Source: Pyrinomonadaceae bacterium (GTDB taxonomy: Bacteria > Acidobacteriota > Blastocatellia > Pyrinomonadales > Pyrinomonadaceae). From it: 63,346 nucleotides of DNA. The translations under genes were made by a program, and so were the position numbers. Where the stretch lies: assembly GCA_036265575.1 (NCBI GenBank), contig DATAOU010000222.1, forward strand, positions 1-63,346. Direction: 5' to 3'. Below are positions 10,814 to 63,195 of this stretch, one piece after another (positions within the stretch are counted from its first letter, which is position 1; each line of letters opens with the position of its first letter). The notes beneath the pieces were generated by a model. That model was not told the origin of the DNA, ran no database searches, and worked only from the letters and a program-made list of their open reading frames with translations.

Positions 10814-10935
10814 GGTTTCGGAGTTTCGAGTTTCGAGTTTCTTTTGCTGGTTTTGGTTTTCGCGTTTTGAGAGTTTCCCGAGCGACTCGCGAGTTCTGAC
10901 AATATCTGAACTCGAAACTCGAAACTCGAAACTTC
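10814..10935. repeat. Heptamer-repeat hairpin (GAGTTTC x3-4 / GAAACTC x3-4)
   Basis: Left arm ggtttcggagtttcgagtttcgagtttc (10814-10841). Right arm gaactcgaaactcgaaactcgaaacttc (10908-10935). The arms are reverse complements, with a spacer of about 66 nt. The element lies between the pcm stop and the dedA start. Confidence 0.85.
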
Positions 10936-11614
10936 ATGTTGCCCAGCCGTGCTGTCCGATGAGCGGAACAAAAGCACAAGCGCCGTGGTCCTCGTGCGTC
11001 GATCCGGTCGCTGTTTTGATCACTCGAATCAGCCGCTGCGATTCGCGCGTATTTCCGATAGGTACGACTAGCCGGCCACCGACCTTTAACTGCGCAACCA
11101 GCGGTTCCGGAACATTAGGACCACCCGCTGCAACCAGTATCCCGTCATAAGGCGCGTGCGTGGCCCACCCCAACGTGCCGTCAAAACATTTCACGGTAGC
11201 GTTATAGATTCCCAACTGTCGAATACGCGCCTGTGCCTGCCGTGCAAGATCTGCGATGCGCTCGATCGAGTAGACCTGGCCCGCGATTTTTGCGAGCACG
11301 GCAGTCTGATACCCAGAACCAGCGCCAATTTCGAGCACCCGGCTTTCCGGCTTTAACTCCAGCAGCTCCGTCATGCGCGCAACAATATACGGTTGCGAAA
11401 TAGTCTGGCTGCCGCTAATCGGCAACGCGTGATCCCCGTAAGCGCGCGATTGCAGAGCTTCCGGGACGAACGAGTGCCGCGGCACTGCTCGCATTGCTTC
11501 CAGCACTTTCAGATCTTTGATGTGGTAATGGTCGCGAAGTCTTTCGACCATGCGATCGCGAGGGATAGCGTAGTCCTGATTTCGATGGGAAGGCTGTTGA
11601 CCGGTAGTTTGCAC
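10934..11614 (-). CDS. pcm: Protein-L-isoaspartate O-methyltransferase
   Basis: 226-aa ORF. 'AMRAVPRHSFVP', 'QTISQPYIVARMTELL', 'VLEIGAGSGYQTAVLA'. The surE-pcm gene pair is conserved. Confidence 0.9.
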   Translation of the reverse strand: MQTTGQQPSHRNQDYAIPRDRMVERLRDHYHIKDLKVLEAMRAVPRHSFVPEALQSRAYGDHALPISGSQTISQPYIVARMTELLELKPESRVLEIGAGSGYQTAVLAKIAGQVYSIERIADLARQAQARIRQLGIYNATVKCFDGTLGWATHAPYDGILVAAGGPNVPEPLVAQLKVGGRLVVPIGNTRESQRLIRVIKTATGSTHEDHGACAFVPLIGQHGWAT

Positions 11615-11647
11615 AAAGCTTCCGAACTATAAAACTCGAAACCGCGC

Positions 11648-12418
11648 CTAGCTTTTCTGCATGAGTTCGGCGTCGTTCAAATAATTCCACGTCTCAAGAG
11701 CGGTTAGCGCATTGTGGTCCGTCATGTCACTCTTCAAAGGCGTAACCGAAATGTAACCCTGTTCGATGGCATTGTAGTCGGTGCCATCGGCTGCATTGGT
11801 GTTAAAATACTCTTCGCCGATCCAAAAATAAGGCTTGCCGCGCGGATCGATATGCTCGCTAATTACAGGCCGCGCATTCTTTATTCCCTGCCGCGTAACC
11901 TTGACTCCCTTAAACGCGCGTGCCGGAAAATTGATGTTCAGCAAAGTTCCTTCGGGCAATCCTTCAGTTAACACTTTTTGCACCGCCGTTTGAGCAAACC
12001 GTGCTGCTTCTCGGAAATCAAAATTCTCACGCGCAACGAGGCTGAAAGCGAGTCCGGGTACGCCGAGGATAGTGGCCTCGAGGGCGCCGGCAACGGTGCC
12101 CGAATAAGTGGCATCGTCACCCAAATTGCCGCCGTGATTTATTCCCGACGCACAGATGTTTGGCATCTCCTCAGCAGAAAGTATTTTATTCAGCGCGAGC
12201 GTAACGCAGTCAGTTGGTGTGCCATCGACGGTCCAATGTCTTGAATCAATTTTGCGAATTCGCAATGGTCGCGCCAGCGTGAGACTGTGCGACGCACCAC
12301 TCATTTCCGATGCAGGCGCAACCACGAAGACGTCACCGATCTCACTAAGTGCCTCTTCAAGCTTGATGAGGCCTTTAGAATGTATGCCGTCGTCGTTCGT
12401 GAGTAGAATTCTTGTCAT
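11648..12418 (-). CDS. surE: 5'/3'-nucleotidase SurE
   Basis: The ORF 11648..12457 contains 'MTRILLTNDDGIHSKGL', the canonical SurE N-terminus. I place the start at that Met (12418). Confidence 0.9.
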   Translation of the reverse strand: MTRILLTNDDGIHSKGLIKLEEALSEIGDVFVVAPASEMSGASHSLTLARPLRIRKIDSRHWTVDGTPTDCVTLALNKILSAEEMPNICASGINHGGNLGDDATYSGTVAGALEATILGVPGLAFSLVARENFDFREAARFAQTAVQKVLTEGLPEGTLLNINFPARAFKGVKVTRQGIKNARPVISEHIDPRGKPYFWIGEEYFNTNAADGTDYNAIEQGYISVTPLKSDMTDHNALTALETWNYLNDAELMQKS

Positions 12419-12535
12419 AGGAAACCCACTGGGCGCCCAACCTTCTCCTCGCTCCACGATCGCCTGCGGCTCTCGCCGGGCGCTTCGGATTGCATGAGAT
12501 TTCGATAATGCGCGTGGGTATACCGGCTGGGCAAA

Positions 12536-12742
12536 CTAGTCGCGAGGGGTTGTGCGCATGCGGCCTTTCTTCTTGTTCCGTTTGCGCGCCAATGCGGACT
12601 TTAGTTTTGCCTTCTGGCCTGGAGGGATAAAGAACGCGTGCTTTTTCGCATCCTTGATGATCTCTTCCGTCATTACTTTCCGCTTGAAACGGCGTAAAGC
12701 GCTTTCAATCGATTCGCCCTGATTAACAGTAACTATTGCCAT
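12536..12742 (-). CDS. rpsU: 30S ribosomal protein S21
   Basis: 68-aa ORF 'MAIVTVNQGESIESALRRFKRKV...KKHAFFIPPGQKAKLKSALARKR', a typical S21. Confidence 0.9.
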   Translation of the reverse strand: MAIVTVNQGESIESALRRFKRKVMTEEIIKDAKKHAFFIPPGQKAKLKSALARKRNKKKGRMRTTPRD

Positions 12743-12833
12743 TCACTTCTCATCTTTCTGAAAGAATTTCGTCTGCTGTTTTGCAACCCCGCTATTTAAC
12801 ACGCCCAAAACCATTGCGGTCAAGTTCGGAGGG

Positions 12834-12940
12834 CGTAAATCGTGATTCGTTAATCGTAAATCGTGCGTGAAATCGCGGTCCGAAAACCTTGTCTGCCGCG
12901 CCTTTTCAACCACTATTCACGATTTACGATTTACGAATAC
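12834..12940. repeat. Heptamer-repeat hairpin (CGTAAAT/CGTGAAT family)
   Basis: Left arm cgtaaatcgtgattcgttaatcgtaaatcgtgcgtgaaatcg (12834-12875). Right arm cactattcacgatttacgatttacgaatac (12911-12940), which is the reverse complement of the same 7-mers. Confidence 0.8.
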
Positions 12941-13000
12941 ATAGTGAACCCCGCGAACATTGCTATTCGCGGGGTTCCTGACCTTCCCGGAAAAGCGAAC

Positions 13001-15040
13001 CTAAACGAGAACTGCTTCAGGTGCTTCCTGCTTCTTGCGGCTCAAGCTTTGAATTTGGACCGGCTTGTCGGCTTCCTTCACGTCGAGCTGCTTCTTCAGG
13101 ACCATTTCCTGGTACAGCTTGCGCATCATCACTGCCTCTTCATGCGCGGTCTTGGGCCCTTCCATCTCCGGCTTGTTGGGCCGCGTCAGGTCGATCGGAT
13201 TCAAGACCATATTGTGAGCCTTGTCGGCGAGTTCGACTTCTTTGCCGCGAGCAAAGATTTCGTGACGGCCATTCTCTTCGTACCATTTTGCTACCGTCGC
13301 ATTCTGGTGCATGTTCTCGATGATGTTTCTCCAGCCAATGCCTGTGTTGTAGGCGCAGAATGAAATCTCACCTTCCTGCGTTCCATAAGGAATGATGCAC
13401 ATCTCGGTGCGACGGAAATCGTAGTTGAACAGATCCTGGAACCACATGCCGGCGATGAACAGGAAGTTCCAACGATCGGCACGTCGCTTCTCGATATCAT
13501 CTTTCGAGCGATCGCCGCTGACCTTACCGTAATCTTTACCGGTCAAGCCAAAAGACTTGTCAAACTTCTTGAAAAGCTCATACAGCGTGAACTGCGACGG
13601 CGATTTGTACGGGTTGTAGTGCTTGAGCAGCGCCAGGCCCATCATCAAATTCGACATCCACTTGCCGCGCGCGGCGTCAGTGATCTTCTGCATGTCCTTA
13701 ACCAGCCCGGGAATATTCAGGAACTCCGGTACCGGTCGCATTTCGCGCGTTTCTTTGTCGACCATCACTGCCGTTCCCACACCGCAGTTCGGATGGCAGC
13801 CACAGGAAACCTGACCCCATTCGGCTTGTGGTCCATGGACCAAATCCGCGAAGTCAGCAAAAGCACCCATCAGCGACAGCGGAAACCAATCACGCGTGGG
13901 CTCAGTAATACCAACCTGATCCTTCACATCGTGCGCCAAATGCGAAAGCGTGTAGCGCTGTTGCAGGCGACGCTGCGGCGTAATTTCTTCGTCGCGTCCG
14001 GTGAATGAAACTGGCTGAAACGAAAGAAACGCGATCTTCTTGGGGTTATCGAGAGCGAAACGAACAATCGACCCAACCTGATCGTTGTTGATGCCGTTAA
14101 CTAGAGTGGTAACCAACACGATCTCAACACCGGCTTCATGCAGGTTGTTGATGGCCCGCATCTTCACATCGAACAAGTTGCCCACCTGACGATGACTATT
14201 GGCGTCGTTGCCGATGCCGTCAAATTGCAGATAGACATAGCGCAAACCGGCGGCAGCAGCTTCACGGCAGAATTCTTTGCTCTTGGCAAACTCAATTCCG
14301 TTCGTCGCAGCCTGCACGCTGTTGTAACCAACCTTGCGCGAATATTTAATCGATTCAATAAAGTGCGGCGAAATAGAAGGCTCACCACCGGAAAATTGAA
14401 CGGACATCTGACGCCGCGGTTTAATCGAAATCGCGTTGTCCAGAATTTCTTTGATCTCGTCCATGCTTAACTCGTGAACGAAACCAACTTGGTTAGCGTC
14501 CATGAAGCAGGGGTCGCACATCATGTTGCAGCGATTAGTAAGATCGACTGTCAAGACGGCGCCACGCCCATACTTGATGGTGCTGCTTCCGTGGTTATGC
14601 AACTTCTCGTCGTTGTGCGCGTCGATATCGCGGCCTGGAAACATCTTTTCGATGTGCGTCAAAAACTTGACGTCGATGGCCATCATGTCTTCGAAGTGCC
14701 CATGGATCGGACAGTCCTTGACCATCCAAACCTCGCCGTCGCGCTCAATAATCTGCGCTTTAATTTCGCCAACCTTCTCATTGATAAGAACACTGACGTC
14801 TTGCTTGCCGCTGAGAATCGACTCCCGGGCTTCGATTACGCAGTTGGGACAAAGCGAATCCGTCGTACGCGGCCAGCCTAACGTTGGCTTGCTCTTCTGC
14901 CATGATTTCAACAGTGGCTTGTCCGACCACTTTGGGGTAAATGACGGGTTCGGTTTGTACTTATTCACAGACTGAATAACGTCGTGAAGGCCGCCGGCTG
15001 CCATTGTCAGGCCCTTTTCGGCGCGCTTAATTAGTCGCAT
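13001..15040 (-). CDS. Large radical-SAM enzyme with an N-terminal Cys-rich (zinc-ribbon/rubredoxin-like) segment; possible Tes/GDGT-MAS-like lipid synthase
   Basis: 679-aa ORF. Radical-SAM cluster motif 'LTNRCNMMCDPCF' (CX3CX2C). N-terminal 'SLCPNC...VKDCPIHGH'. Additional Cys sites 'VSCGCHPNCG' and 'EMCIIPYGTQEGEISFCAYN'. The radical-SAM call is confident; the Tes-like assignment is inference only. Confidence 0.8.
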   Translation of the reverse strand: MRLIKRAEKGLTMAAGGLHDVIQSVNKYKPNPSFTPKWSDKPLLKSWQKSKPTLGWPRTTDSLCPNCVIEARESILSGKQDVSVLINEKVGEIKAQIIERDGEVWMVKDCPIHGHFEDMMAIDVKFLTHIEKMFPGRDIDAHNDEKLHNHGSSTIKYGRGAVLTVDLTNRCNMMCDPCFMDANQVGFVHELSMDEIKEILDNAISIKPRRQMSVQFSGGEPSISPHFIESIKYSRKVGYNSVQAATNGIEFAKSKEFCREAAAAGLRYVYLQFDGIGNDANSHRQVGNLFDVKMRAINNLHEAGVEIVLVTTLVNGINNDQVGSIVRFALDNPKKIAFLSFQPVSFTGRDEEITPQRRLQQRYTLSHLAHDVKDQVGITEPTRDWFPLSLMGAFADFADLVHGPQAEWGQVSCGCHPNCGVGTAVMVDKETREMRPVPEFLNIPGLVKDMQKITDAARGKWMSNLMMGLALLKHYNPYKSPSQFTLYELFKKFDKSFGLTGKDYGKVSGDRSKDDIEKRRADRWNFLFIAGMWFQDLFNYDFRRTEMCIIPYGTQEGEISFCAYNTGIGWRNIIENMHQNATVAKWYEENGRHEIFARGKEVELADKAHNMVLNPIDLTRPNKPEMEGPKTAHEEAVMMRKLYQEMVLKKQLDVKEADKPVQIQSLSRKKQEAPEAVLV

Positions 15041-15346
15041 CTTTTCTCCTCAGAACTCTCTACTGTTTGATTAAAATTGCTTGTTTGCGATAAGAGGGAA
15101 AGCACACGTTGCCTCGCAAACTCCCGAACTTCTTCGCAATGACCATGCCGCCATATCCTGGCGCCACGGAACTGTTAACCTATATAGACTTATCGCCGAA
15201 ACCGCTGAAATTACCATGCGTAATTCGGCCTTCACCGTGTATCACAGCGACGCGCGTTGGCGCGACGGGCGCACAGCGTAGCATTTTGGCCGCCGTTCGC
15301 CAAGCGCGAATTATGGGAATTTCTTAGTGGTTGAGCGGGCGGGGTT

Positions 15347-16408: not shown

Positions 16409-16413
16409 TATTG

Positions 16414-18158: not shown

Positions 18159-18177
18159 TTCTGGTTAGAAGCCGAAA

Positions 18178-19527: not shown

Positions 19528-19562
19528 CAGTGTTCACCTTCCTAAAGACTTGTTAAGTCGAG

Positions 19563-21486: not shown

Positions 21487-21616
21487 TTGTCAGTGGTCAA
21501 TGGTCCGTTGATGACTTTAGTCTTCATGTTTGGTTGGGGGTTCAGGAAATCAGTAGGTTTGTTTGGCGGGTCAGCTCGGTCGGATTCCTACAACCGGACC
21601 ACTGACCACTGACAGC
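21487..21616. repeat. Heptamer-repeat hairpin (GGTCAGT type) in the tadB-tadC spacer
   Basis: Left arm ttgtcagtggtcaatggtccg (21487-21507). Right arm cggaccactgaccactgacagc (21595-21616), whose reverse complement is gctgtcagtggtcagtggtccg. Confidence 0.8.
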
Positions 21617-49910: not shown

Positions 49911-51614
49911 TTAGACCAGAGACGGAGGTAGCACAAACTGGCCGATGTGTGGTCCGTCATTGTTCAGACTGGTGCGCAGGCTTAACTCGAGCGCATCACG
50001 CGTCTGTTCCGGCGTGATGACAGCATCAACAAAACCGCGCGCGGCAGCATACTTGGCATCGAGATCGCGCTCGTAGGTTTCGCGCACGCTGTTCATTTGT
50101 TGTTCGAGGTCTGCTCCCGGCTCTTCGCCCTTCGCCCTTAGCTTTTCCAGTTGGCTGCCGAAAACTGCTTGTACTGCCGAGTCGCCTTCCATCACACCCA
50201 TTCGCCCGGTGGGCAGACTGAAGATGAAGTCAGGATCGAATCCCTGGCCAGCCATTGCATAATAACCAGCGCCCGATGCGTGATTTACGGTCAGCACAAC
50301 TTTGGGAACCAGGGCCGTGGCCATTGCTTCCACGAATTGCGCGCCGGCGCGAATGATTCCGGAATGCTCGGCCGCGGACCCAACCATAAAACCGGAAACG
50401 TCTTGAACAAAAAGCAGCGGCGTTTTGTGGCGGTTGCAGGTCTCAATGAAGTAAGCGACCTTCTCAGCCGATTCAGTGTAGATAATGCCGCCAAATCGCG
50501 GTGGTCCACCGGCCGGCGACTTCACCATGCCGCGATGGTTGGCAATAACACCAACCTGAATGCCGCGAATGCGCGCGTGCCCGGTGATAATTTCTTTGGC
50601 ATAGTCAGCCTGGAACTCATCCAACAAGCCATCGTCAAGCAAACAATTCAACAGCTCGCGCATGTTGTAAGGCTGGCGATGATCTTCCGGAACTATTTCG
50701 TAGATGCTTTCGGCTGGCGTCTTCGCTTTACCAAATGGCACAGTTCGCACCGCAGCATCCACCTTAAACGGCAGCTCTGAAACAAACTCGCGAATTTTTA
50801 CGATGCAAGCCTCGTCGTTCTTCACGCGGTAATGGGCCACACCCGACAACTCATTGTGCGCGCGGGCGCCGCCGAGAGTTTCGTTGTCGATCGTTTGGCC
50901 GGTCGCACCTTTCACCAGGTTCGCTCCGCCAAGTCCCATGAACGAAGTGCCTTCAACCATGATGATTACATCGGAAAGCGCCGGCAGATACGCGCCTCCG
51001 GCAATGCACGGTCCCATCACCGCCGAAATCTGCGGAACCTTTAAGTAGCGCCGCATAATCGAGTTGTAATAGAAGATTCGCGACGCGCCGTACTGTCCCG
51101 GAAAGACGCCGCCTTGATAAGGAAGATTCACGCCCGCTGAATCAACCAGATAAATGATCGGCACGTGGCACCGCATCGCAATTTCCTGCGCGCGCAGAAT
51201 TTTCTTGATTGTCTCCGGCCACCATGAACCGGCCTTAACCGTCGCGTCGTTAGCGACTATCACCACTTCCCTGCCTTCGACCATACCTACGACAGTCACC
51301 ACTCCTGCGGCCGGCGCCGCGCCAATCGATTCCTGCTGCTTGCTGTTTGCTGTTTGCTGTTTGCCGTCCTGATATTGATCGTACGCAACCAACAAACCTA
51401 TTTCCTGCGAATAGGTGTTCTTGTCAAGCAGTAGATCGATACGTTCTCGCGCCGTTAGTTTGCCTTGCTTGTGCTGCTTCTCAATTTTGTCCGGCCCGCC
51501 CCCGAGACGCAGTTTCGCCTCAAGCTGCTGCAGCTCGGCCGTCAGTTCCTTTAAGCGGGAATTTTTTTGTCTGGGTTTGGCGTCAGTTATTTTCATCAAC
51601 AGACCGCATTGCAA
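49911..51614 (-). CDS. Acyl-CoA carboxylase carboxyltransferase (beta) subunit, MccB/AtuC-like
   Basis: 567-aa ORF. 'VVIVANDATVKAGSWWP', 'PIIYLVDSAGVNLP', 'ISAVMGPCIAGGAYLP' and 'FVQDVSGFMVG'. The start may be the Met at 51596. Confidence 0.88.
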   Translation of the reverse strand: MQCGLLMKITDAKPRQKNSRLKELTAELQQLEAKLRLGGGPDKIEKQHKQGKLTARERIDLLLDKNTYSQEIGLLVAYDQYQDGKQQTANSKQQESIGAAPAAGVVTVVGMVEGREVVIVANDATVKAGSWWPETIKKILRAQEIAMRCHVPIIYLVDSAGVNLPYQGGVFPGQYGASRIFYYNSIMRRYLKVPQISAVMGPCIAGGAYLPALSDVIIMVEGTSFMGLGGANLVKGATGQTIDNETLGGARAHNELSGVAHYRVKNDEACIVKIREFVSELPFKVDAAVRTVPFGKAKTPAESIYEIVPEDHRQPYNMRELLNCLLDDGLLDEFQADYAKEIITGHARIRGIQVGVIANHRGMVKSPAGGPPRFGGIIYTESAEKVAYFIETCNRHKTPLLFVQDVSGFMVGSAAEHSGIIRAGAQFVEAMATALVPKVVLTVNHASGAGYYAMAGQGFDPDFIFSLPTGRMGVMEGDSAVQAVFGSQLEKLRAKGEEPGADLEQQMNSVRETYERDLDAKYAAARGFVDAVITPEQTRDALELSLRTSLNNDGPHIGQFVLPPSLV

Positions 51615-51624: not shown

Positions 51625-52980
51625 TTAGGATCTAAGCACCTTTAAAAAATTGGTTGCATCAAGCTGCTGCGATAAACCTTCAACGATTGTGACCCGCAGC
51701 CCGCGCAATTCCATGACAACTTGTCCTTCATTTGTTTGCCACGTTTTCAAAGTGTCGGACGTTGGGTGTTGGCTGTCGGTCAGGAGTTTCAAATTGGGAT
51801 AGCGCAATTGGGTTCGCTTTACGTATGCATCAAAAAACTCGCGCGCGTCCGTTTCGGTGTCCCAGGCTGAAATTTGCGCAATGCACGCCTGCCCCTCAGG
51901 GCCTTCATAAACGTCGTAACGATCGCCGGCCCAACCAGCCGCAGCCCGGCGCGATTCGGCCGGTGAGTTTAGGAACTGATCGAGCACTAGATAATAGCCC
52001 CACTCTCCGTTGACATCAGAATCGATGCGGCGCCAGGCGGGCGAAGTGCTGAGTGCTGAGTTCTGAGTGCTGAGCGCCTTATTGAGCAAACTGCTCATGT
52101 CAGGCAGCGTAATTTTTAGCGGCTTCTCGTACGCAAAGTATTTTTCCGGATGCAGAATTTGTTCGGTGGACAGCGGCAGGTTCGTAAAAGCTTTTGATAA
52201 CCCGCCAAAGCCGTCGCGCTTGTAGACGCTAGTGGCCCATTGGCTTCCCTGCAGGTAAGGGAAAATGAGCGACTCGCGCAGGGCGCGCGGCGCCTGATTA
52301 AACTGTTCGGTCGAAACGCCGGTGTTTACCGAACGCGTGAATGCCAGGGCCACCAGCGGATTCTTCGCCATATAAACCATCATGGCCAGCGTCGCATCGC
52401 CTTCAATCAGCGAATGAGCCGCCAGTTGCGCGTCGGAATCGCCATGCGGCCACTTCTGAAATCTACGAAGGTTAAAGTGCTGGTCCTGCAGCGCGTGGGT
52501 TAGTTCGTGCGCCATCACCGGTTTTTGAGTTTCCAACTCCAACCAGTCGGCCAAATAAAATTCGCGTGTAACCGGGTCGTAGTATCCGGCAATCTGTTCC
52601 AACAGCAACTTGATAATGAACGGGCGATATTCAAAAGTCGCCGGCGCTAAACCCAACTTGCGATAGGCTACTTCCGTCGCGTGCATTTCTGCAGTCGTCA
52701 TCTGCTCGTAAAGATTCTTAACGAGCATATTCTCAATCTGAGCACGCGACTGGGCCCCGCTCTTCACCGGCTGGAGAATTGGTAACTCGCGAATCTTGCT
52801 GGTCTCTTCCAGGACATTGGAAGTGGCTTCAACAATCGCGGCTTCGCGTGCAGCATGACTGGAAATGGCCGGGCGCTGCTGGGCGCGCAGTGTAAGCCGG
52901 GGAGAATTTACAAGGGCGCCGCTGGTGAGCACCGCAAGGACGGCCGTTAGGGCCAGGAATCTACTAATAATCTTTGACAT
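51625..52980 (-). CDS. Secreted HExxH protein (putative zinc metalloprotease, MA-clan-like)
   Basis: 451-aa ORF with a signal peptide. 'KPVMAHELTHALQDQHF' carries the HExxH motif. I cannot name the family. Confidence 0.5.
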   Translation of the reverse strand: MSKIISRFLALTAVLAVLTSGALVNSPRLTLRAQQRPAISSHAAREAAIVEATSNVLEETSKIRELPILQPVKSGAQSRAQIENMLVKNLYEQMTTAEMHATEVAYRKLGLAPATFEYRPFIIKLLLEQIAGYYDPVTREFYLADWLELETQKPVMAHELTHALQDQHFNLRRFQKWPHGDSDAQLAAHSLIEGDATLAMMVYMAKNPLVALAFTRSVNTGVSTEQFNQAPRALRESLIFPYLQGSQWATSVYKRDGFGGLSKAFTNLPLSTEQILHPEKYFAYEKPLKITLPDMSSLLNKALSTQNSALSTSPAWRRIDSDVNGEWGYYLVLDQFLNSPAESRRAAAGWAGDRYDVYEGPEGQACIAQISAWDTETDAREFFDAYVKRTQLRYPNLKLLTDSQHPTSDTLKTWQTNEGQVVMELRGLRVTIVEGLSQQLDATNFLKVLRS

Positions 52981-54431: not shown

Positions 54432-54437
54432 AAGTTT

Positions 54438-54783
54438 CGTAAATCGTGAATCGTAAATAAGGTAAAGGGCGGTAAATAGTAAATGGTAAATCGTAAATAG
54501 GAAAACGGACGCCCCGCAGCGTCCCAAGTACCGCACGCAAGTGACGAAAAGAAAACCGCAAGAAAAATTGGCAACCGAAAATAGCTCTTAACGGCTATTT
54601 ACGATTCCCGATTTACGGCTCTTAAGTGAATCGTGAATAGACAAAAGCCGCAAACCGGAAGGCGTCAATCGAGATAGCTCAGCCACTATTTACGATTCAC
54701 GATTTACGATTTACGGCTCTTAATCGTCAACCGAGAATAGCTCTCAACCGCTATTTACGATTCACGATTTACTATTTACGGCT
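54438..54783. repeat. Composite heptamer-repeat array (CGTAAAT family): one forward block plus three ~50-65-nt units carrying the inverted block
   Basis: Forward block cgtaaatcgtgaatcgtaaataaggtaaagggcggtaaatagtaaatggtaaatcgtaaatag (54438-54500). Inverted blocks: ctatttacgattcccgatttacggctc (~54595-54621), ctatttacgattcacgatttacgatttacggctc (~54686-54719) and ctatttacgattcacgatttactatttacggct (~54751-54783). Each is preceded by an 'atagctc..' motif. Confidence 0.85.
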
Positions 54784-54787
54784 TTGT

Positions 54788-54992
54788 TGGCAGGAGGGAC
54801 ATCCGCGATGGTCGTTCCGGAGCCGTAATTGAACCTGCATGTACAGGTGGGTGACCTTTAAGAGCCGCAGCCTCTGGCAATTCTTAACGCTGAAGAAGTG
54901 CACTGGCAAACGGCATCGGTCTCCCATTTTAACGGCGTTGGCTCAATCATCGTAACTCGGTGACGAGCCCCGCAGAATATTTCCCTCCGCCG
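54788..54992 (-). ncRNA. ssrS: Candidate 6S RNA (ssrS-like): a ~205-nt rod with a central bubble; strand inferred from zapA synteny
   Basis: Hand fold. Closing stem GGAGGGA(54793-99)/TCCCTCC(54982-88), continued by GCG/CGC, GG/CC, TCGT/ACGA and TAATTGA/TCAATCA. Central internal loop of about 12 nt (tgcatgtacagg) opposite about 13 nt (ttttaacggcgtt). Distal stem TGGGtGACC/GGTCtCCCA, GAGCCG/CGGCaTC and GCAATTCTT/AAGAAGTGC, with apical loop aacgctg centred at ~54890. It lies downstream of zapA, as ssrS does in E. coli. Confidence 0.45.
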
Positions 54993-55088
54993 CGCGCGAT
55001 ACTAACACAGCCGGGCGGAACTCAGGTAATTGTGTTAGGACGCGTTGGACGTTTCGAGGGTCGTATGGCACTGCAAGCAAACATTCAG

Positions 55089-55237
55089 CCGCGGATCGCG
55101 CGAATGAACGCGAATCTGCAAACGAATTAGGCGCAGGTGTCGTAAACCAGAAAAAGAATTAAGTCGGAAAGCAGAAAGGACTTGAAGCTCTTAGATTGTT
55201 CTTTTGCAGATTCGCGCTCATCCGCGCCAATCCGCGG
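55089..55237. repeat. Long imperfect inverted repeat just downstream of zapA
   Basis: Left arm ccgcggatcgcgcgaatgaacgcgaatctgcaaa (55089-55122). Right arm ttttgcagattcgcgctcatccgcgccaatccgcgg (55202-55237), whose reverse complement is ccgcggattggcgcggatgagcgcgaatctgcaaaa. The arms are ~34 nt with a few mismatches, and the spacer is ~79 nt. Confidence 0.75.
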
Positions 55238-55273
55238 CTGTGTTCCGTCTGTTTGTTCGAAATTCTTCTGGAA

Positions 55274-55660: not shown

Positions 55661-55935
55661 CTGAGTTCCTCCGCCAGCTCGGGATCCAGCGCGGCCACGG
55701 CGTCGAGCATCGCCTCTACCTTCATGCGGATAATGTCGCGTTCGGCCAGCAGCGCTTCCACTTGTTTTTCCAGGCGTTCCTGCTCGCGCGGTACGCTGCC
55801 CCGGTTGCGGCGCATGTTGGAAAGCTCTTTTTCAAGGCTCTCCTTCTCTAAGCGAAGCGTCTTGGTGAGTTCAATGGTCCGGTAGATCTTATCTTCGAGA
55901 TGAGAAAACTTTTCGAGTCCTGAGAGTGCGATCAT
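55657..55935 (-). CDS. Small coiled-coil protein upstream of zapA (ZapB-like)
   Basis: 92-aa ORF with heptad Leu/Glu-rich sequence throughout. It has an ATGA overlap with the zapA start. Function is inferred from context only. Confidence 0.4.
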   Translation of the reverse strand: MIALSGLEKFSHLEDKIYRTIELTKTLRLEKESLEKELSNMRRNRGSVPREQERLEKQVEALLAERDIIRMKVEAMLDAVAALDPELAEELR

Positions 55936-56042
55936 CTAACTAATCTTTCTGAGTTCGTGTTGCTATCCGCGTCGGCGAGGCGATTATGCGACTTCACGCT
56001 GTCAAGCGCAAGACTATCGGCACCGGTAAAGGCGATTTATTT

Positions 56043-58139
56043 TTAATGAAGCTCGGCATTAAATTTTTTCAGCAGCGAATCTAACAGACGCCGGTGACGT
56101 TCTTCGACTTCTTCGTCGCGCAACGTCCCCTGCTGGGAACGATACTCGACGCGCAAGGTGACCGATCGCTTGTCAGCGGGAATACTTTGCCCTTCGTAAG
56201 TGCCCACCAGTTGAACGCGCTGGTAGTCTTCGATTTCCTGCGACTGAATCGCCGCGACCAGTTCGCTGAAACCAACATTGCGACCAACGAGTAGCGTCAC
56301 GTCTCGCATTACTGATGGATAGCGCGGCAAAGGTCTGTACTTGATTTCATGTTCCGCAAGTTCAAGTACCGGCGTCAGGTTAAGTTCAGCCACGAACACT
56401 CGTTGCCGAAATTTGTAATCAGCGGAAATTGTTTCGGACAAAGCGCCGGCATTACCAATCACCGTTCCGTCGGCGAGCAGAATGTACGCTGACTGGCCCG
56501 CGCGCAAATGTTTCACTTCAGCTGCGGCAAAAACCAAAGGCGATAGATTCAACGACGCGATCGCCGCCTGTAATGCGCCCTTAAGATCGTAGAAATCGAG
56601 CTCGCGGCTCGCCTGCGCCCGGTCCTGTTCGCTGGCCCCGCCGCTGGCGATCAGCCCCAGCGACTCCGATTCATGCGGGAGCTCCCCATTCTCGGAACCC
56701 GCGAAAATACGGCCCATTTCGAACAAACGGACATCCTTAGTGCCCTGGTTAAAGTTGTGACGAAGCGACTGCAATAGCCCCGGCATCAGGCTCGGCCGCA
56801 TCCTGGTGGCGTCTTCCAGAATGGGATTGCTCAAGGTGACGAACGACTCTTGATTGTCGTGTGGAGTCGCTGAAGCCAAAGCGAAAACTGCGTCGTGTGC
56901 CGGGTCGATGAAACTGAGGTTAATTGCTTCGTCGAAGCCGAGGCTGGTCAACGCGCGACGTATATTGCGGCGTTTGAGTTCCGCCGGTTGGTATTCACCC
57001 GCCATGGAGGACGGGGGCAACTCTGAACCGATATGCTCGTAACCTACGTGTCGCGCTATCTCTTCAACCAAATCTTCTTCGAGACTGACGTCAACGCGCC
57101 AACTGGGAACAACAAATGTTTTTGCATTGTCCTTTGCCCCGGGACTGCCGGCAAAGCCAAGCGCGGTCAGAATACGATCCATCTCTGCCACATCCACGCG
57201 CAGGGAGGTCAGACTCTCGACCTTTTCGGGACGAAAGTTTATTGAGCGCGCTACGAAGGGTCGCGGATAGACATCGATAACATCTACGGTTGCCGTGCCG
57301 CCGGCAATTTCGCAAATTAGCTCAACGCATCTCGTCTGTGCGTTGACCAGGTTCTCGCAATCGGCACCGCGCTCAAAGCGTTTCGATGCCTCAGTGTCCA
57401 TGCCCAGCTTGCGTGCCGTCCGTCTGACTGAATCAGGATCGAAGTAAGCACTTTCGATCAGCACGTCAACGGTCGCCGCTGAGATTTCTGAATCCAGACC
57501 GCCCATGATTCCGGCAAGCGCGACTGGCCGCTCGGCATCAGCAATGACCAGCATCTCGTTATCCAAGTTGCGTTCAACGCCATCAAGCGTTTGCAGTTTC
57601 TCGCCGGCGCGGGCCCGGCGCACAATAATTTTGCGGCCGTCGAGTTTTGTCAGATCAAAAGCGTGCAATGGCTGGCCCAACTCATGAAGCACATAGTTGG
57701 TGATGTCAGCAACATTATTGATTGGGCGCTGACCGATCTCGTTGAGGCGTTTCGCCAGCCACTCGGGTGATGGGCCAATCTTCACGCCGCGCACGATGCG
57801 AGCAGCGTAACGCGGGCAAAGATCCGGATCGGCAATTTCTACCGAGGCGTAATCGCTCGCTTTTCCTTCGGTTTTTATGCCTTTGGAGCTGAGATCTGAG
57901 ATCTGAGATCTCAAATTTGAGAGGTTGGACCTTTCTATGACCGCAACTTCGCGCGCGATGCCCACGTGCGACAGACAATCGGGCCGGTTTGACGGCACCT
58001 CGACGTCCAACAACGAGTCCCCGTCGTTTTCTTCAACTGAATCGATGGCAAGTCCGACCATAGTAAGCCGCTCCCGCAGTTCCAGCGGGGTCAGCTTTGT
58101 GCCGGTAAGCTCGCGCAGCCAGTTGTAACTAATTAACAT
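56043..58139 (-). CDS. pheT: Phenylalanine--tRNA ligase beta subunit (short form without the EMAP-type tRNA-binding domain)
   Basis: 698-aa ORF. N-terminus '[13 protein letters not shown]', '[20 protein letters not shown]', B5 and FDX-ACB regions, and C-terminal '[21 protein letters not shown]'. It lies downstream of pheS. Confidence 0.92.
57888..57925. repeat. GAGATCT heptamer/hairpin element embedded in frame in pheT
   Basis: gctgagatctgagatctgagatctcaaatttgagagg. It shares the core gagatctcaaatttgaga with the intergenic unit at 60370-60389. It is translated as '..[14 protein letters not shown]..'. Confidence 0.8.
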
Positions 58140-58150
58140 TATGAATTCTT

Positions 58151-58350
58151 AGAACTTTGAACTTGGAACTTAGTACTTTGATCTTAGGTCTTTGGCCCTT
58201 GGCCTTTGGCCTTTGAACTTAGTGCTTTGGACTTTGGCCTTTGAACCTGGCGCTTGTACTTTGGACTTTGGTCAGCAAAAGTGAATCAGAAAAAGAAAAA
58301 CACAAAGTACAAAGAACGAAGATCAAAGATCAAAGACCAAAGCCCCAAGA
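58151..58350. repeat. Largest heptamer-repeat hairpin (about 17 x CTTTGGN versus about 8 x NCCAAAG), filling the pheS-pheT spacer
   Basis: The left arm (58151-58273) is a run of actttga/acttgga/tctttgg/cctttgg/gctttgg 7-mers. The right arm (58301-58350) reads acaaagt/acaaaga/tcaaaga/ccaaagc/ccaaagg. The loop is A-rich (58274-58300). Confidence 0.85.
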
Positions 58351-58365
58351 CCAAAGGCCCTTGTT

Positions 58366-59466
58366 TCAATCAAACTGTTCCAAAAACCTCAAATCATTTT
58401 CGAAAAGCAGACGAATATCATCCAGCTCGTACATCAAAGCGCACATGCGGTCGATTCCCAGTCCAAAAGCAAAGCCCGAATAGATTTCCGGATCGACGCC
58501 CGCAGTCCGCAGGACGTTCGGATGGACCATGCCGGAACCGCCGAGCTCAATCCAGCCCGACTGCTTGCAGATGCGACAGCCCGAACCACCGCATTTGAAA
58601 CAACTGAAGTCAAACTCCGCGCTCGGCTCTGTAAAGGGAAAGTACGACGGGCGGAAGCGCGTCACGGTCTGCGCCCCAAACATGCGTCGCAGAAACTCGG
58701 CAACAGTCCCTTTCAAGTGGGCCATCGTGATTCCGCGATCAACGCATAGACCTTCAACCTGAAAGAACATTGGATTGTGCGTGGGGTCGGGCGTGTCGCG
58801 ACGAAAGACGCGGCCGGGAGCAATCATTCGCAGCGGCGCGCCGCGTCGTTGCATAGCGTGAATCTGCACCGTCGAAGTTTGCGACCGAAGCGCAAAGCCC
58901 TCGGTCGTATAAAAAGTGTCTTGCGGCGCGCGTGCCGGATGATTTGCAGGAATGTTCAGGGCGTCGAAATTGTAGAAGTCGGTTTCAATTTCCCGGTCGT
59001 CTTCAATTGCATATCCCAGCGAGACAAAAATGTCTTCAATGCGCTCTCGCATTCTCGTTATCGGATGAATATGTCCCTGACGTGGGCGCCGGCCCGGCAA
59101 CGTCACATCGATGCGGTCGCGCTCCCTACGTGCCGCTTGCAGCAAACCAGCAAGCGTCTCGTCAGCGGTTGTAATTCGCTCGGTAATCTCAGCTTCGGCC
59201 TGTTGCACTAACTGGCCGAAAGCTGCGCGCTCATCGGCGGCAACTTTGCCGATAAGCTTTTTGCAGGCAGCAAGGGCGCTTTTCTTGCCCATATGCCGAG
59301 TTCGCAAATCAGCCAGAGCTTTTTGTTCAGCCTCGGCGTCAGCCAAACTTAGGGACGGGGCAGAAGTATCCGTTAAGCGGACAAAGCGTTCGAACTCCTG
59401 CTCGAACGCTTTGCGTGCCGCCTGAACCTGGTGCTTTGGATCTTCCTGATTCGTGCTCTCGGTCAT
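58366..59466 (-). CDS. pheS: Phenylalanine--tRNA ligase alpha subunit
   Basis: 366-aa ORF. '[19 protein letters not shown]', '[22 protein letters not shown]' and '[16 protein letters not shown]' are the class II motifs. Confidence 0.93.
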
Positions 59467-59514
59467 TGGTTATCGTCAACCATCTAATCCCGTCTTGCTT
59501 CCAAGAGGGGTGCC

Positions 59515-59895
59515 TTAAGCCGCAGCCTGCTCTTTCTTGTTCTCAATTGCGTTCTTAGCCTGCAGCGCGACTTCCGTAAAGGCCTCGGGCTGATTGACCG
59601 CGAGATCGGCGAGGACCTTGCGATCCAACTCAATTTCCGCAAGCTTCAAGCCGTGCATCAACTGCGAATAGTTCATTCCATTCAGGCGTGCCGCCGCGCC
59701 AATGCGCACAATCCAAAGACTGCGAAAATCGCGTTTCTTTAGTTTGCGGCCGGTGTACGCGAAATTTAATCCGCGCTCAACCGACTCTTTTGCAGAACGA
59801 TACAGTTTCGACTTGGTGCCGCGATAACCCTTCGCCAGCTTTAAAATTTTCTTGCGTCGTTCGAGACGCTTATTTCCACGTTTAGCTCTTGGCAT
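59515..59895 (-). CDS. rplT: 50S ribosomal protein L20
   Basis: 126-aa ORF '[26 protein letters not shown]...[11 protein letters not shown]'. Confidence 0.95.
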
Positions 59896-59914
59896 AACTT
59901 CTCCTTAACTTTGT

Positions 59915-60030
59915 GCGACAAACTTTGGCTTGTCGCTACTTAACTCTGTCCGACAAACTTAGTTTGTCGCTACCTATCGCCGGATTCCGATGTGTTGAGA
60001 ATCACAAAGTCGACAAACTAAAGTTTGTCG
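59915..60030. repeat. Three copies of a ~20-nt perfect hairpin (CGACAAACT-n-AGTTTGTCG) in the rpmI-rplT spacer
   Basis: gcgacaaactttggcttgtcgc (59915-59936), cgacaaacttagtttgtcg (59951-59969) and cgacaaactaaagtttgtcg (60011-60030). The first two are flanked by TTAACT(T/C)TG. Confidence 0.85.
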
Positions 60031-60040
60031 GACATTTCAT

Positions 60041-60244
60041 CTAGTCTCTTCCGTAGGGCAGCATGGCTGCGACACGCCCGAGGTCGGATTTTGAAACCAG
60101 CCCGTCAATGTCGAGCAGCCGTTTTCGCTTGTTGGTTTTCTTTGTCAGGATATGGCGCGCGTGCGAGTGACCGCGTTTTACTTTTCCGCTGGCGGTCAAA
60201 CGAAAACGCTTTGCTGCACCCTTGTGCGTTTTTAGTTTTGGCAT
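60041..60244 (-). CDS. rpmI: 50S ribosomal protein L35
   Basis: 67-aa ORF '[36 protein letters not shown]'. Confidence 0.93.
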
Positions 60245-60255
60245 AATTTCCTCTC

Positions 60256-60400
60256 TTAACTCTGAAACTCTGAGATCTCATTGTTGAGATCTGATATCGA
60301 AAAACCTTCTCTTTAACTCTGGGATCTCATAATTGAGACCTGGATCGAAAAATCTCGTCTTTAACTCTGAGATCTCAAATTTGAGATCTGAAATCGAACT
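60256..60400. repeat. Three tandem ~50-nt units, each TTAACTCTG plus a GAGATCTCA-nnn-TGAGATCT hairpin, in the infC-rpmI spacer
   Basis: The TTAACTCTG motif occurs at 60256, 60313 and 60361. The hairpins are agatctca-ttgt-tgagatct, ggatctca-taat-tgagacc and agatctca-aatt-tgagatct. Confidence 0.85.
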
Positions 60401-60410
60401 CTCTTCGCGC

Positions 60411-61097
60411 TCAGCCAGCATCTGCCGGCTTGTCCGCTTCTACTTTCGGCTCCAGGTTATTTTCCACCTTGGGCGCTTCTGCTTTTGGTGCCGGCCTATT
60501 AGTCGCTGCAGCGGCCGCCGGAGGCTGATGTGTGGTTCCCTTATGCTTCTTCGGGCCCAGAATGATGAACATCTGGTTTCCTTCCATGCGGGGCCGCGCT
60601 TCTACTTCACCAACGTCAATCAGGTCTTTTTCCAGCCGTTCCAGGATGCGCGCGCCCAATTCACGATGCGTCATCTCGCGGCCGCGGAACCAGATCGTGG
60701 CTTTAACTTTGTCGCCTTCTTCCAGCCATTCGCGCGCATGCTTCATGCGATAACTGTAATCATGATCATCGGTGCCCGGCCGAAACTTAACTTCCTTGAC
60801 GGTGATCGTGACCTGCTTTTTCTTCGCCTCATTTGCCTTTTTCTTCGCTTCGTATTGAAACTTCCCGAAGTCGATGATGCGGCAAACCGGCGGATCCGCA
60901 GTTGCTGCCACTTCCACCAGGTCCAAACCTTTTTCCCGGGCGGCGCGAATTGCATCGCGAATATCCATTACACCAAGCTGTTCGCCCTCGTCCCCGATAA
61001 CGCGTACCTGGGGAACACGAATTCGTTCATTAATGCGGGCAATGGGCATGCGCCGGTTGTCCGGGCGCGAGCCGCGACCTCGAAAGCCTGTAGCTAT
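60411..61097 (-). CDS. infC: Translation initiation factor IF-3, proposed AUA start
   Basis: The track ORF (60411..61049) starts at '[27 protein letters not shown]'. The frame stays open upstream to an ATA at 61095-61097, which is preceded by AGGAGGTG with a 4-nt gap. The ATA start adds (M)[17 protein letters not shown]-3 genes classically use non-AUG starts. Confidence 0.85.
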
Positions 61098-61116
61098 ACC
61101 TCACCTCCTAAAGTTA

Positions 61117-61186
61117 GAGTTTCGAGTTTCGAGTTCCGAGTTCCGAGTTCAAGCCAACTCGAAACTAGAAACTAGAAACCCGAAAC
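61117..61186. repeat. Heptamer-repeat hairpin (GAGTTTC/GAGTTCC versus GAAACTC/GAAACTA) in the thrS-infC spacer
   Basis: Left arm gagtttcgagtttcgagttccgagttccgagttc (61117-61150). Right arm aactcgaaactagaaactagaaacccgaaac (61156-61186). The 7-mer family is the same as at 10814-10935. Confidence 0.85.
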
Positions 61187-63159
61187 TATGTATTAGTCAA
61201 CGCACGCAGCTCGACAAGCTGCCGCGCCATCTCAACAAAGTCATTGAGCGACATCACACCGATGTCGCCTTTGGTGCGCTCGCGAACCGCAACCATTCCC
61301 TGCTCCATTTCGCGATCTCCGAGCACGAGCATGAACGGAGTCTTCTGCATTTGGGCGTTGCGGATTTTTGCGCCGATCTTTTCACTCTTTAGGTTGGCCT
61401 CAACCCGCAACCCGGCAGCACGCAGTTCGGCTGAAACTTTTGCTGCATACTCGTTAACGCGATCGGTAATCGGCAGGATTGCAACCTGTACCGGCGCCAG
61501 CCACATAGGAAATGCGCCGGCGTAGTGCTCAATCAAAACGCCAAAGAAGCGCTCAATCGAACCGAACAACGCGCGATGGACCATGACCGGGCGGTGCGGT
61601 TTATTATCTTCGCCGATGTACTCAAGCTGAAAACGTTCGGGCAGGTTGAAATCCCACTGCACGGTGCCGAGCTGCCAAAGCCGGCCGATGGCGTCTTCAA
61701 CCTTGAAATCAATCTTCGGGCCGTAGAAAGCGGCTTCACCTTCGATGCGCTCATACTCGATGTTGCGCGCTTGCAGAGCGTCCGCCAGCGCAAGCTCCGC
61801 GTTTTGCCATTCGTCGTCTGAACCGAGCCATTCCTTCGAACGATCGTTACCCTTAACTGACAATTCAAACTTTATCTTCTCAAAGCCGAACGTCTTGAGT
61901 ACTGCATAGGCAAAGTCGACGCAATCGTCAATCTCTTTCCGCACCTGTTCGGGAGTGCAAAACAAATGCGCGTCATCGACCGTAAAACCGCGAACTCGCA
62001 TCAGCCCATGCAACGTCCCTGAGAGTTCCGCGCGATAAACGGTGCCCATCTCTGCGTATCGCTGCGGCAGGTCGCGATAGGAACGCTGTTGCGATTTGTA
62101 GATGCCGATATGAAACGGGCAATTCATCGGCTTAAGCCGAAACTCGGTCTCTTCAATCGTGGTCGGCGCAAACATTGAATCGCCGTAACTCTGTTCATGT
62201 CCGCTAATCCGCCAGAGTTCGCGCTTAGCGATGTGCGGCGTATAGACAAAACTATAATCTCGTTTGATCAATTCGCCGCGCAGATAGTCTTCCATTTGCT
62301 GGCGAATGATGCCGCCCTTGGGATGCCAGAAAATTAAGCCCTGGCCGTACTCTTCCTGAATTGAGAACAGATCGAGTTCCCTTCCCAACCGCCGATGGTC
62401 TCGTTTCTCGGCTTCCTCGCGCTGTTTCAGCCAGGCGTCCAACTCTTCCTGCGAGAAGAAAGCCGTGCCGTAGATGCGCTGCATCTGGGTATTGGCAGCG
62501 TCGCCTTTCCAATAGGCACCGGCCAGCGACAGCAACTTAAACGCGCGCAACTTGTTGGTGTTCGGCACGTGCGGCCCGAGACAAAAGTCGATGAACGGCG
62601 AACTATCGATGTAGTAAACACTGACGACCTCGCCGGCCTTCTCATCAATCAATTCGCACTTCAAGGGTTCGTCGCGCTCTTTAAAGATCTCGAGTGCTTT
62701 CGCCTTGGAAATCTCTTCGCGCCGGTAAGCAAGGTTGCGGCTGGCAATTTGCCGCATGCGCTTTTCGATAAGCGGCAGATCAGCTTCAGTTAAAGGCTGC
62801 GGCGCGATCACGTCATAGAAAAATCCGTAGCGCGGATCTTCCAACAGTGCCGGCCCTATGCCCAGCTTGGTGCCGGGAAACAAATCCAGAACCGCGGCCG
62901 CCAGCAAATGCGCAGTCGAATGACGCAGCACGTCTAAACCTTCGAGCGTTTGCGGCAGTACCGGCTCGATTTCGAGCGCCTCGTCGTTTTGCTGCACATC
63001 GAGCGTGAAGGCGAGATCAACTTCGCGGCCATTGACGCGCGCGGCCAAAGCCTGCTTCGCCGCTTCGCGGTCCAGCTTCTTCAGTGCTTCGCCGACAGTG
63101 ACCGGCGCAGGCATCTGCGTCGCTGGTCCCTGGCCAAGTTGTACGTTGATCTCACTCAT
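61186..63159 (-). CDS. thrS: Threonine--tRNA ligase
   Basis: 657-aa ORF with a TGS N-domain. '[11 protein letters not shown]', '[11 protein letters not shown]', '[14 protein letters not shown]' and an anticodon-binding C-terminus. It heads the thrS-infC-rpmI-rplT-pheST block. Confidence 0.95.
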
Positions 63160-63167
63160 CTCTTGTT

Positions 63168-63195
63168 AGTAAATCGTGAATCGTGAATCGTAACC
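63168..63195. repeat. CGTGAAT/CGTAAAT heptamer run directly upstream of the thrS start
   Basis: agtaaatcgtgaatcgtgaatcgtaacc. I found no complementary arm before the window ends. Confidence 0.7.

Follow-up and report, generated by a model that had tools for sequence, protein, structure and literature searches.

Heptanucleotides are the commonest long simple-sequence repeats in bacteria (PMC4679880; PMC4692102), and neither their origin nor their role is understood. The closest precedent for the elements reported here comes from Xanthomonas, in which Rehm et al. 2015 (PMC4692102) found 70-75 convergent inverted pairs of GGGAATC heptamers per genome. These repeats preferentially consist of ~ 4 units and lie mainly between co-directional genes, rarely between divergent ones; the G-rich strand is on the sense strand, at most 50 bp away from the stop codon or overlapping it, and the C-rich strand is just upstream of the next start (PMC4692102). 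The repeat type is retained between species while its length varies, and the authors read the repeats as G-quadruplex motifs; GGGGA(T/C)T heptamer repeats occur in Nostoc (PMC4692102). Here, we analyse heptanucleotide arrays paired into hairpins in a 63,346-nt stretch of a Pyrinomonadaceae genome (assembly GCA_036265575.1, contig DATAOU010000222.1), the whole of which is referred to as the window, and in related genomes. An earlier note, based on the letters of the window, had taken the paired-arm heptamer form to be undescribed; it had been described in Xanthomonas by Rehm et al. 2015 (PMC4692102), and the present elements are best filed as a sequence-diverse form of these already described paired repeats.

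The Xanthomonas pairs and the Pyrinomonadaceae hairpins are alike in their ~ 4-unit size, stop and start codon placement, G-first polarity and convergent pairing. They belong to different phyla, and Xanthomonas uses one unit per genome, interpreted as G-quadruplex-forming, whereas the Pyrinomonadaceae hairpins are built from at least 60 unrelated units, most of them without G-tracts (a GGG run is missing from GAGTTTC, CGTAAAT, CTTTGGN, AGTGACA and others). A further difference is that the paired form predominates in the Pyrinomonadaceae set, with 148 hairpins versus 93 solo arrays. Since dozens of unrelated 7-mers that cannot form a G-quadruplex conform to the Xanthomonas-type architecture, a G-quadruplex cannot be the common denominator and is removed as an explanation; the hairpin and its polarity remain.

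The short tandemly repeated repetitive (STRR) sequences of heterocystous cyanobacteria are, at least in the account of Mazel et al. 1990 given in PMC4692102, dispersed intergenic heptanucleotide arrays, direct and of several unit types per genome. The Pyrinomonadaceae elements are likewise dispersed intergenic heptanucleotides of several unit types and differ in phylum, in unit sequences and in that the STRR arrays are direct. An AGT/CAGT flavour is common to both sets; in a comparison made by eye, none of 60 Pyrinomonadaceae units was seen to be a rotation of an STRR1-3 unit. In marine Beggiatoaceae, cyanobacteria and Bacteroidetes, TAACTGA direct repeats of 2-6 units occupy intergenic DNA and end a few nucleotides before start codons (MacGregor 2015, PMC4679880); those of Beggiatoa have a single unit and are almost always direct, with one inverted set in 170 (PMC4679880). 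Some of the Pyrinomonadaceae 3' arms come close to this sequence, reading CAACTGA or CTACTGA and ending 1 nt before the pheT start, but the Beggiatoa repeats are single-unit, direct and not anchored to stop codons.

The repetitive extragenic palindromes (REP) of proteobacteria, with the related bacterial interspersed mosaic elements (BIME) and REP doublets forming hairpins (REPIN), are transcribed palindromes located in operons past stop codons, and in E. coli they stabilise mRNA 3' ends. Each genome's REPs follow a conserved consensus of their own and are linked to RAYT transposases. The Pyrinomonadaceae hairpins share the position of intra-operon palindromes downstream of stop codons, but lack a consensus and a tandem-free core and show no link to a transposase; no RAYT (TnpA-REP) gene was noticed among the open reading frames of the window that were scanned, a part of the total. 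Quasi-palindrome template-switch mutagenesis, reportedly the subject of work by Ripley and, in E. coli, by the Lovett laboratory, offers a known route of arm correction, although it is known as a single-site hotspot and not as a genome-wide builder of periodic hairpins. A search for literature on heptamer hairpins in Acidobacteria found none, which is weak evidence as most subscription journals lay outside the search. Both features of the heptanucleotide class of long simple-sequence repeats (Mrazek 2007; STRR-like), namely, a period-7 excess and a preference for non-coding DNA, are found in the material described below.

Period-7 arrays in the window and its relatives

A simple autocorrelation scan of the window for periods 4 to 12 (run score of at least 12) revealed 12 runs of period 7 and none of any other period. 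The mean number of period-7 runs in 100 dinucleotide-preserving shuffles of the window was 0.01. That note had listed at least nine loci of one paired-arm architecture in intergenic spacers. Tandem Repeats Finder reports period-7 arrays at all of the positions it named, in agreement with the raw sequence, and six of the nine loci are true two-arm heptamer hairpins (10815-10935, 12834-12940, 21487-21616, 54437-54783, 58151-58356 and 61117-61188). The other three do not share the architecture: the locus at 63168-63195 is a single arm, that at 60256-60400 is a 48-nt repeat, and that at 57888-57925 is not intergenic, as it lies in frame inside pheT. Two further period-7 arrays, absent from the original list, were found in coding DNA (51334-51364 and 52045-52074). 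Four of the elements, folded alone as RNA (10815-10935, 12834-12940, 21487-21616 and 61117-61188), reach -38 to -56 kcal/mol, with z scores of -2.75 to -7.6.

Almost every gene in the vicinity of the elements is encoded on the minus strand. The densest cluster of elements coincides with the conserved operon thrS-infC-rpmI-rplT-pheS-pheT-zapA-6S RNA-ymdB, in which they occupy the spacers. Only tRNA-Pro and 6S RNA passed the Rfam gathering thresholds in the window. No Rfam family corresponds to the elements; at E ≤ 1, they matched only eukaryotic miRNA-precursor models, far under threshold, as generic long hairpins do.

These data raise the question of how far the pattern extends. A search of species-representative genomes with the L20 protein (best match 97% identical) yielded 80 related loci totalling 1.15 Mb, hereafter cited by locus number (L). 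They are labelled mostly Pyrinomonadaceae and otherwise Blastocatellia, Chloracidobacterium, Acidobacteriota or unclassified bacterium, and the gene order is common to all 80. The host of the window is therefore a member of Pyrinomonadaceae/Blastocatellia in Acidobacteriota, as had been surmised when the genome was said to look acidobacterial. In the 80 loci, period 7 accounts for 248 runs and no other period for more than 7. Of 260 arrays, those of the window included, 165 are accompanied by an inverted partner no more than 400 nt away, compared with 5 of 260 in a reversed-sequence control. Merging left 93 arrays solo and yielded 148 hairpins with a median length of 79 nt, the paired form being the majority. 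Clearly intergenic positions account for 93 of the 148 hairpins in a data set in which non-coding DNA makes up 14.5% (p = 4e-41), so that the intergenic location stands for the family of elements, while about half of the solo arrays are in coding DNA. The heptamer-hairpin observation is real, statistically overwhelming and family-wide.

The phenomenon extends past the family. A metagenome scan with a pattern neutral to polarity returned 120 contigs (GC 0.42-0.64); because this degenerate pattern also matched AATTCGA-type units, the contigs were put through the general pipeline instead, which found 69 hairpins and 170 runs of period 7, no other period having more than 15. Among the 'viral' contigs, some hold as many as eight different heptamer arrays in 12 kb. 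An unrelated, higher-GC contig from IMG/VR (L086, GC 0.62) has eight arrays of different units in 11.8 kb (123-10324), including TGGTCAG, CAGTGAT, CGAGTTT, TTACTGA, CGTTTTC, AGGGATT and others, units reminiscent of those of Xanthomonas and Beggiatoa. Explicit G-first and C-first patterns, applied to viral contigs, gave 0 matches each.

Another important question is whether the arrays could have arisen in assembly. For this population check, contigs encoding proteins identical to those of the window were taken from two JGI metagenomes. One of them (L082) matches the window over 1,768 nt with 2 substitutions and no indels, spanning both the 226-nt pheS/pheT element (58151-58356) and the pheT array (57889); two others (L083, 5,662 nt, 15 mismatches; L084, 2,329 nt, 1 mismatch) run gapless through 21487-21616. 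As all three pass through the elements without a gap, the arrays are not assembly artefacts. The arrays are stable, without indels, between strains that are 99.7-99.96% identical. Exact-protein look-ups with thrS, IF3, YmdB and the VTT protein gave no match.

Anatomy and turnover of the hairpins

The typical hairpin has ~ 30 paired bases and a mean folding energy of ~ -44 kcal/mol and lies in a spacer between co-directional genes. The median number of units per arm is 3.6-3.9. At least 60 different 5'-arm units occur among 133 hairpins, in keeping with the earlier description of a constant architecture with a variable 7-mer; AGT is present in 24 of 60 units, compared with 11.3 expected. Comparison of the two arms' consensus units showed perfect complementarity in 49 of 73 cases and a single mismatch in 20 more. 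The stem starts at a median of 6 nt past the upstream stop codon (10-90%: -1 to +15), sometimes overlapping it, and ends at a median of 19 nt ahead of the next start (1-14 nt at pheS/pheT). In the window, the 3' arms stop 6-14 nt short of the ATG that follows, as seen at ymdB, pheT, the T2SSF gene and the VTT gene. Where genes are inserted between pheS and pheT (L052, L054, L058), the hairpin remains at the pheS stop codon.

The hairpins have a strong polarity: a G-rich 5' arm (G > C) and a C-rich 3' arm are found in 128 of 133 (1270 G versus 471 C). The metagenome sample shows the same bias (45 G-first versus 12, p = 1e-5). Since a hairpin reads identically on both strands, the polarity belongs to the palindrome and not to the chosen strand. 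Fold-back priming by G.T wobble was considered as its cause and rejected, as isolated arms of either strand hardly self-fold (-1.4 versus -1.1 kcal/mol). Downstream of ymdB, two relatives have long ACTGCCC / GGGCAGT arrays ~ 500 nt apart (L008, 8484-8523 and 8999-9042; L012, 15851-15922 and 16461-16490), in some cases in C-first order, which may flank a small gene or pair over a long range.

Across the family, hairpins are found at the same operon junctions with different 7-mers, both arms changing together; the elements are thus not copies of one transposing sequence, as the earlier note had argued. The thrS/infC junction bears a hairpin of 55 nt or more, beginning at the stop codon, in 51 of 73 genomes. 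Its units include AGTTTCG, AGTTTCA, GTCCAAT, AGTCTGG, GAGGTCG, GGTCAGT and AGTACTG, and the complement of each is present in the 3' arm. RNAalifold applied to a MAFFT alignment of these hairpins gave only 9 pairs because of register ambiguity, and the stem was therefore written by hand for 24 aligned hairpins. In this stem, 82% of cells are paired, compared with 51-53% when the partner is shifted by one column, and 23 of 32 pairs show double changes. The number of doubly changed cells is 103, compared with 45.8 ± 7.1 after shuffling, and none of 500 shuffles reached 103. Compensated swaps of whole arrays occur between close relatives (e.g., AGTTTCG/AACTCGA versus AGTTTCA/AACTTGA).

Traces of both arm-to-arm correlation and local slippage are left within individual elements, since in 28% of variant columns one and the same variant occurs in the two arms (the estimate for independent arms is a few per cent) and 19% of variant bases are common to the adjacent unit. 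Together with the double changes in the thrS/infC stem, the former figure supports the arm-to-arm templating or compensation suggested in the earlier note; the slippage suggested there is supported by the latter figure, by 7-aa coding repeats and by an in-frame insertion of three 7-nt units in pheT. This (GAGATCT)3 insertion has no counterpart in 29 relatives and is present in the independent contig L082; from these sequence comparisons, we regard it as a fresh de novo amplification by 7-nt steps in coding DNA. The unit numbers of the two arms are uncorrelated. A 'vocabulary' of units peculiar to each genome, from which spread within the genome would follow, was sought within the 20-kb loci and set aside: there was no clear signal, unit sharing being 9.8% within one locus and 7.3% between loci.

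One clade (L019, L021, L025, L027, L028, L041 and L053) is poor in heptamers, with 2 runs in ~ 100 kb, compared with 2-7 per 10 kb in its neighbours. At the thrS stop codon it retains a hairpin that is not periodic, and the pheS/pheT spacer is missing; hence, the hairpin is old at some junctions and was added at others. In the same clade, ~ 0.7-1.1 kb is inserted between rplT and pheS and the pheS and pheT genes abut, which makes it a natural control group for a 7-nt-step factor.

A different kind of change was found at the rpmI/rplT junction. A contig from a strain 99.7% identical (L081) does not differ from the window in rpmI and rplT or in the next spacer and pheS (~ 850 flanking bases), but its rpmI/rplT spacer is wholly different (59896-60054 in the window, 138-242 in L081). 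The swapped stretch has exact borders, namely, the rpmI stop codon, which reads TAA in L081 and TAG in the window, and the rplT Shine-Dalgarno (SD) sequence. In L081, it is the family-typical GGATGAA/TTCATCC heptamer hairpin; in the window, it consists of three self-complementary 24-mers. The 24-mer is also found at this junction in L002, L004, L014, L033 and L040, and both types of spacer are patchy across the family.

Origin and possible role

Taking these sequence comparisons together, we assign a probability of roughly 0.55 to the following reading: the elements are intercistronic stem-loops, built and remodelled by 7-nt slippage and arm-to-arm correction, and they likely have a role in mRNA. 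A mutational process of the lineage would amplify DNA in 7-nt steps by replication slippage, acting everywhere, and the products would be tolerated chiefly in spacers and, in coding DNA, as multiples of 21 nt. The arms would be kept complementary by template switching within the quasi-palindrome, by selection for pairing or by both, so that the 7-mer could turn over while the hairpin persists. As there is neither room for a promoter nor a U-tract, the hairpins must be transcribed inside polycistronic mRNAs. Their likeliest role would be that of REP-like intercistronic RNA structures, which might protect 3' ends, offer processing sites to double-strand RNases or couple translation by placing a stop codon close to the start codon that follows it. 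Such an mRNA role is favoured by the tight placement of the hairpins relative to stop and start codons and by the thrS/infC hairpin, which persists in genomes without heptamers.

Several results weigh against this reading. Among 57 hairpins between co-directional genes, the sense strand folds better in 30 and the antisense strand in 24, and G.U pairs number 139 in sense and 130 in antisense (p = 0.2). In view of this lack of asymmetry, which leaves no sign of transcript-specific wobble tolerance, selection at the RNA level cannot be claimed. Quasi-palindrome template switching is an established mutational mechanism that perfects inverted repeats without selection. It could yield the 'covariation' by itself, and covariation in a DNA palindrome alone is thus no proof of a functional RNA. 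Divergent spacers, which contain only promoters, hold 13 hairpins versus ~ 18 expected by count with crude gene calls, a mild depletion and a weak counterpart of the avoidance seen in Xanthomonas. In the heptamer-poor clade, pheS and pheT are separated by 2-6 nt with no hairpin, so the hairpin is dispensable at some junctions. The replacement of a whole cassette at rpmI/rplT in strains that are 99.7% identical cannot be explained by gradual slippage. Finally, this reading accounts for neither the 7-nt step nor the G-first order.

Could the hairpins be a by-product with no function of their own? Slippage and quasi-palindrome correction might suffice to produce self-perpetuating, neutral or selfish arrays that grow until they meet the stop codon and the ribosome-binding site. 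We consider this possible, though less probable than intercistronic stem-loops with an mRNA role. It would agree with the absence of a sense-strand bias in folding or G.U pairs, with arrays that fill the entire spacer and often have the stop codon as their first unit, with the lack of a pheS/pheT hairpin where the genes abut, with the arrays inside coding DNA and with the uncorrelated unit numbers of the arms. It sits poorly with a thrS/infC stop-codon hairpin that is present in 51 of 73 genomes, some of them devoid of heptamers, with a polarity (128 of 133) not expected from a symmetric mutational process, and with hairpins that are free of indels between nearly identical strains.

A bolder reading, which we hold to be doubtful, would see in the hairpins an unrecognised and widespread system of operon punctuation. 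A lineage-encoded activity would write, lengthen and even swap entire hairpin cassettes in the interval from a stop codon to the following ribosome-binding site under fixed rules (a 7-nt step, ~ 4 units, G-rich arm first) common to Acidobacteria, Xanthomonas and cyanobacteria, and the cassettes would set the relative expression of neighbouring genes via RNA processing or translational coupling. The writing activity could be a property of a polymerase or of repair, or a structure-specific enzyme; the latter, which the earlier note also listed among generating mechanisms, is neither required nor demonstrated.

A function at the DNA level is unlikely. Cruciforms or single-stranded hairpins, bound or cleaved by a protein of nucleoid organisation, replication or recombination, would be in line with the equal folding of both strands, with a polarity inherent to the DNA palindrome and with the sharp-edged cassette replacement at one junction. 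However, 60 or more unit sequences argue against a sequence-specific binder, the close anchoring to stop and start codons indicates the transcript or translation rather than chromosome structure, and no associated gene was identified.

Even less credit is due to two further explanations, to which we give equal weight. Non-autonomous mobile elements of the MITE (miniature inverted-repeat transposable element), REP or REPIN type, spread by a transposase, would likewise be dispersed, intergenic and palindromic, the same units are found at unlinked sites (e.g., GAGTTTC at 10815 and 61117), and other small palindromic families exist in relatives. Against spread by a transposase stand the 60 unit types without a common consensus, the orthologous positions across the family, the similar unit sharing within loci and across genomes, and a pheT array that arose in place. 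Neither terminal inverted repeats nor target duplications were seen at the element boundaries, and elements that are orthologous in position and diverging in sequence, with no flanking duplications visible at their boundaries, are not what defines a MITE. Rho-independent terminators, one of the roles envisaged in the earlier note, are suggested by stable stem-loops directly past stop codons; in the classical sense, this role fails, since only 7 of 80 stems are followed by a U-tract, taken as 5 or more T among the next 8 nt, and the next gene begins 1-20 nt downstream, too close to leave space for a promoter, within essential operons such as thrS-infC-rpmI-rplT-pheST. The ~ 30-bp stems are also much longer than terminator stems, and a consensus scan found no excess of terminator-like sites (15 versus 13.5 expected) or of promoter-like sites. 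Misassembly of low-complexity repeats, for which only the general risk attached to repeats speaks, has virtually no chance of being correct in view of the three independent metagenome contigs from two samples, with 0 gaps through the arrays, and of the same architecture and junctions in ~ 60 independently assembled genomes, complete-chromosome records among them.

These ~ 60 genomes, with the same essential operon and junctions, differing units and one heptamer-poor clade, form a natural comparative series that is usable for finding the 7-nt-step factor and for testing whether hairpins tune operon expression.

Individual elements and their surroundings

The coordinates of the elements in the window are presented in Table 1.

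Table 1 Heptamer arrays and associated repeats of the window, with RNA folding values where the element was folded
Positions	Strand	Element	Location	RNA fold
10815-10935	-	Heptamer hairpin (GAGTTTC)n ... (GAAACTC)n	Fills the spacer from pcm (stop codon 10934-10936) to the VTT-domain gene (start 10805)	-44 (minus) / -50 (plus) kcal/mol; z -5.9 / -4.5
12834-12940	-	Heptamer hairpin (CGTAAAT / CGTGATT)n ... (ATTTACG)n	Downstream of a radical-SAM gene, upstream of surE	-38 kcal/mol; z -2.8 to -3.5
21487-21616	-	Heptamer hairpin (GGTCAGT)~2.4 ... (ACTGACC)~2.4, long loop	Fills the 146-nt spacer between two T2SSF (tad-like) genes	z -5.7
51334-51364	-	Solo period-7 array, AACAGCA x 4.4 (sense strand)	Inside a carboxyl-transferase gene	
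52045-52074	-	Solo period-7 array, CTCAGCA x 4.3 (sense strand)	Coding; 7-aa repeat ALSTQNS-ALSTS	
54437-54783	-	Composite: several heptamer arrays (CGTAAAT / ATTTACG) plus a duplicated module of 65 nt	Spacer separating the 6S RNA gene from ymdB (start 54431)	
57889-57922	-	In-frame (GAGATCT)3 array, a 21-nt insertion; unit self-complementary	pheT; +7 amino acids in a linker	
58151-58356	-	Largest heptamer hairpin, ~ 17 units CTTTGGN versus ~ 5 units CCAAAGN	Fills the 226-nt pheS/pheT spacer	-72.6 kcal/mol; z -7.5 (whole spacer)
59904-60040	-	'Type B' cassette, 3 copies of the self-complementary 24-mer GTCCGACAAACTnnAGTTTGTCGGAC, non-heptameric	rpmI/rplT spacer	
60256-60400	-	48-nt unit x 2.7, each copy with a GAGATCTC-nnn-GAGATCT hairpin; not a 7-mer run	infC/rpmI spacer	
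61117-61188	-	Heptamer hairpin (GAGTTTC / GAGTTCC)5 ... (GAAACTN)5	thrS/infC spacer	-40.6 kcal/mol; z -7.6 (sense strand)
63168-63195	-	Single heptamer array (AATCGTG)~3	Ends ~ 10 nt upstream of the thrS start	

Some unit families of the window recur at the same junction in relatives: CGTAAAT between the 6S gene and ymdB in L001-L003, L011, L017, L050, L059 and L072, and CTTTGG at pheS/pheT in L003, L007, L013, L015, L018 and L022. In the thrS/infC element, the thrS stop codon TAG (61186-61188) doubles as the beginning of the first unit, TAGTTTC. The single array upstream of thrS has no inverted partner within the window. The 48-nt repeat copies the SD-like AAGAGA(A/G)G preceding rpmI along with a small hairpin, giving three hairpin-plus-SD-like modules.

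At the rpmI/rplT junction of L001, L005, L008-L010, L015, L016, L046, L060 and L064, the 3' arm of the GGATGAA-type hairpin has an odd unit, TCCGCCC, fixed among TCATCCC units, so that an internal mismatch is conserved immediately upstream of the rplT SD sequence. This region could be a candidate operator for a ribosomal protein (L20). The rplT/pheS spacer, only 48 nt long in the window, contains another palindromic family in some relatives (L001, 10380-10500; L004, 8660-8760), with CCCCTCCCCTTGGGAGGGG- and GGGGAGAGGGG-type hairpins.

The infC start is probably an in-frame ATA at 61095-61097 (minus strand), which lies 5 nt past GGAGGTGAGGT and precedes the first ATG by 48 nt; infC typically has a start codon other than AUG. 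The stretch ATAGCTACAGGCTTTCG is conserved at the nucleotide level in most relatives. The 6S RNA gene (54796-54981, minus strand; Rfam 53.2 bits) is located between zapA and ymdB, the same zapA-ssrS neighbourhood as in E. coli. Between zapA and the 6S gene, a non-periodic hairpin (55090-55238, minus strand) has a ~ 36-bp stem and a ~ 75-nt loop and folds at -64 kcal/mol (z -6.5).

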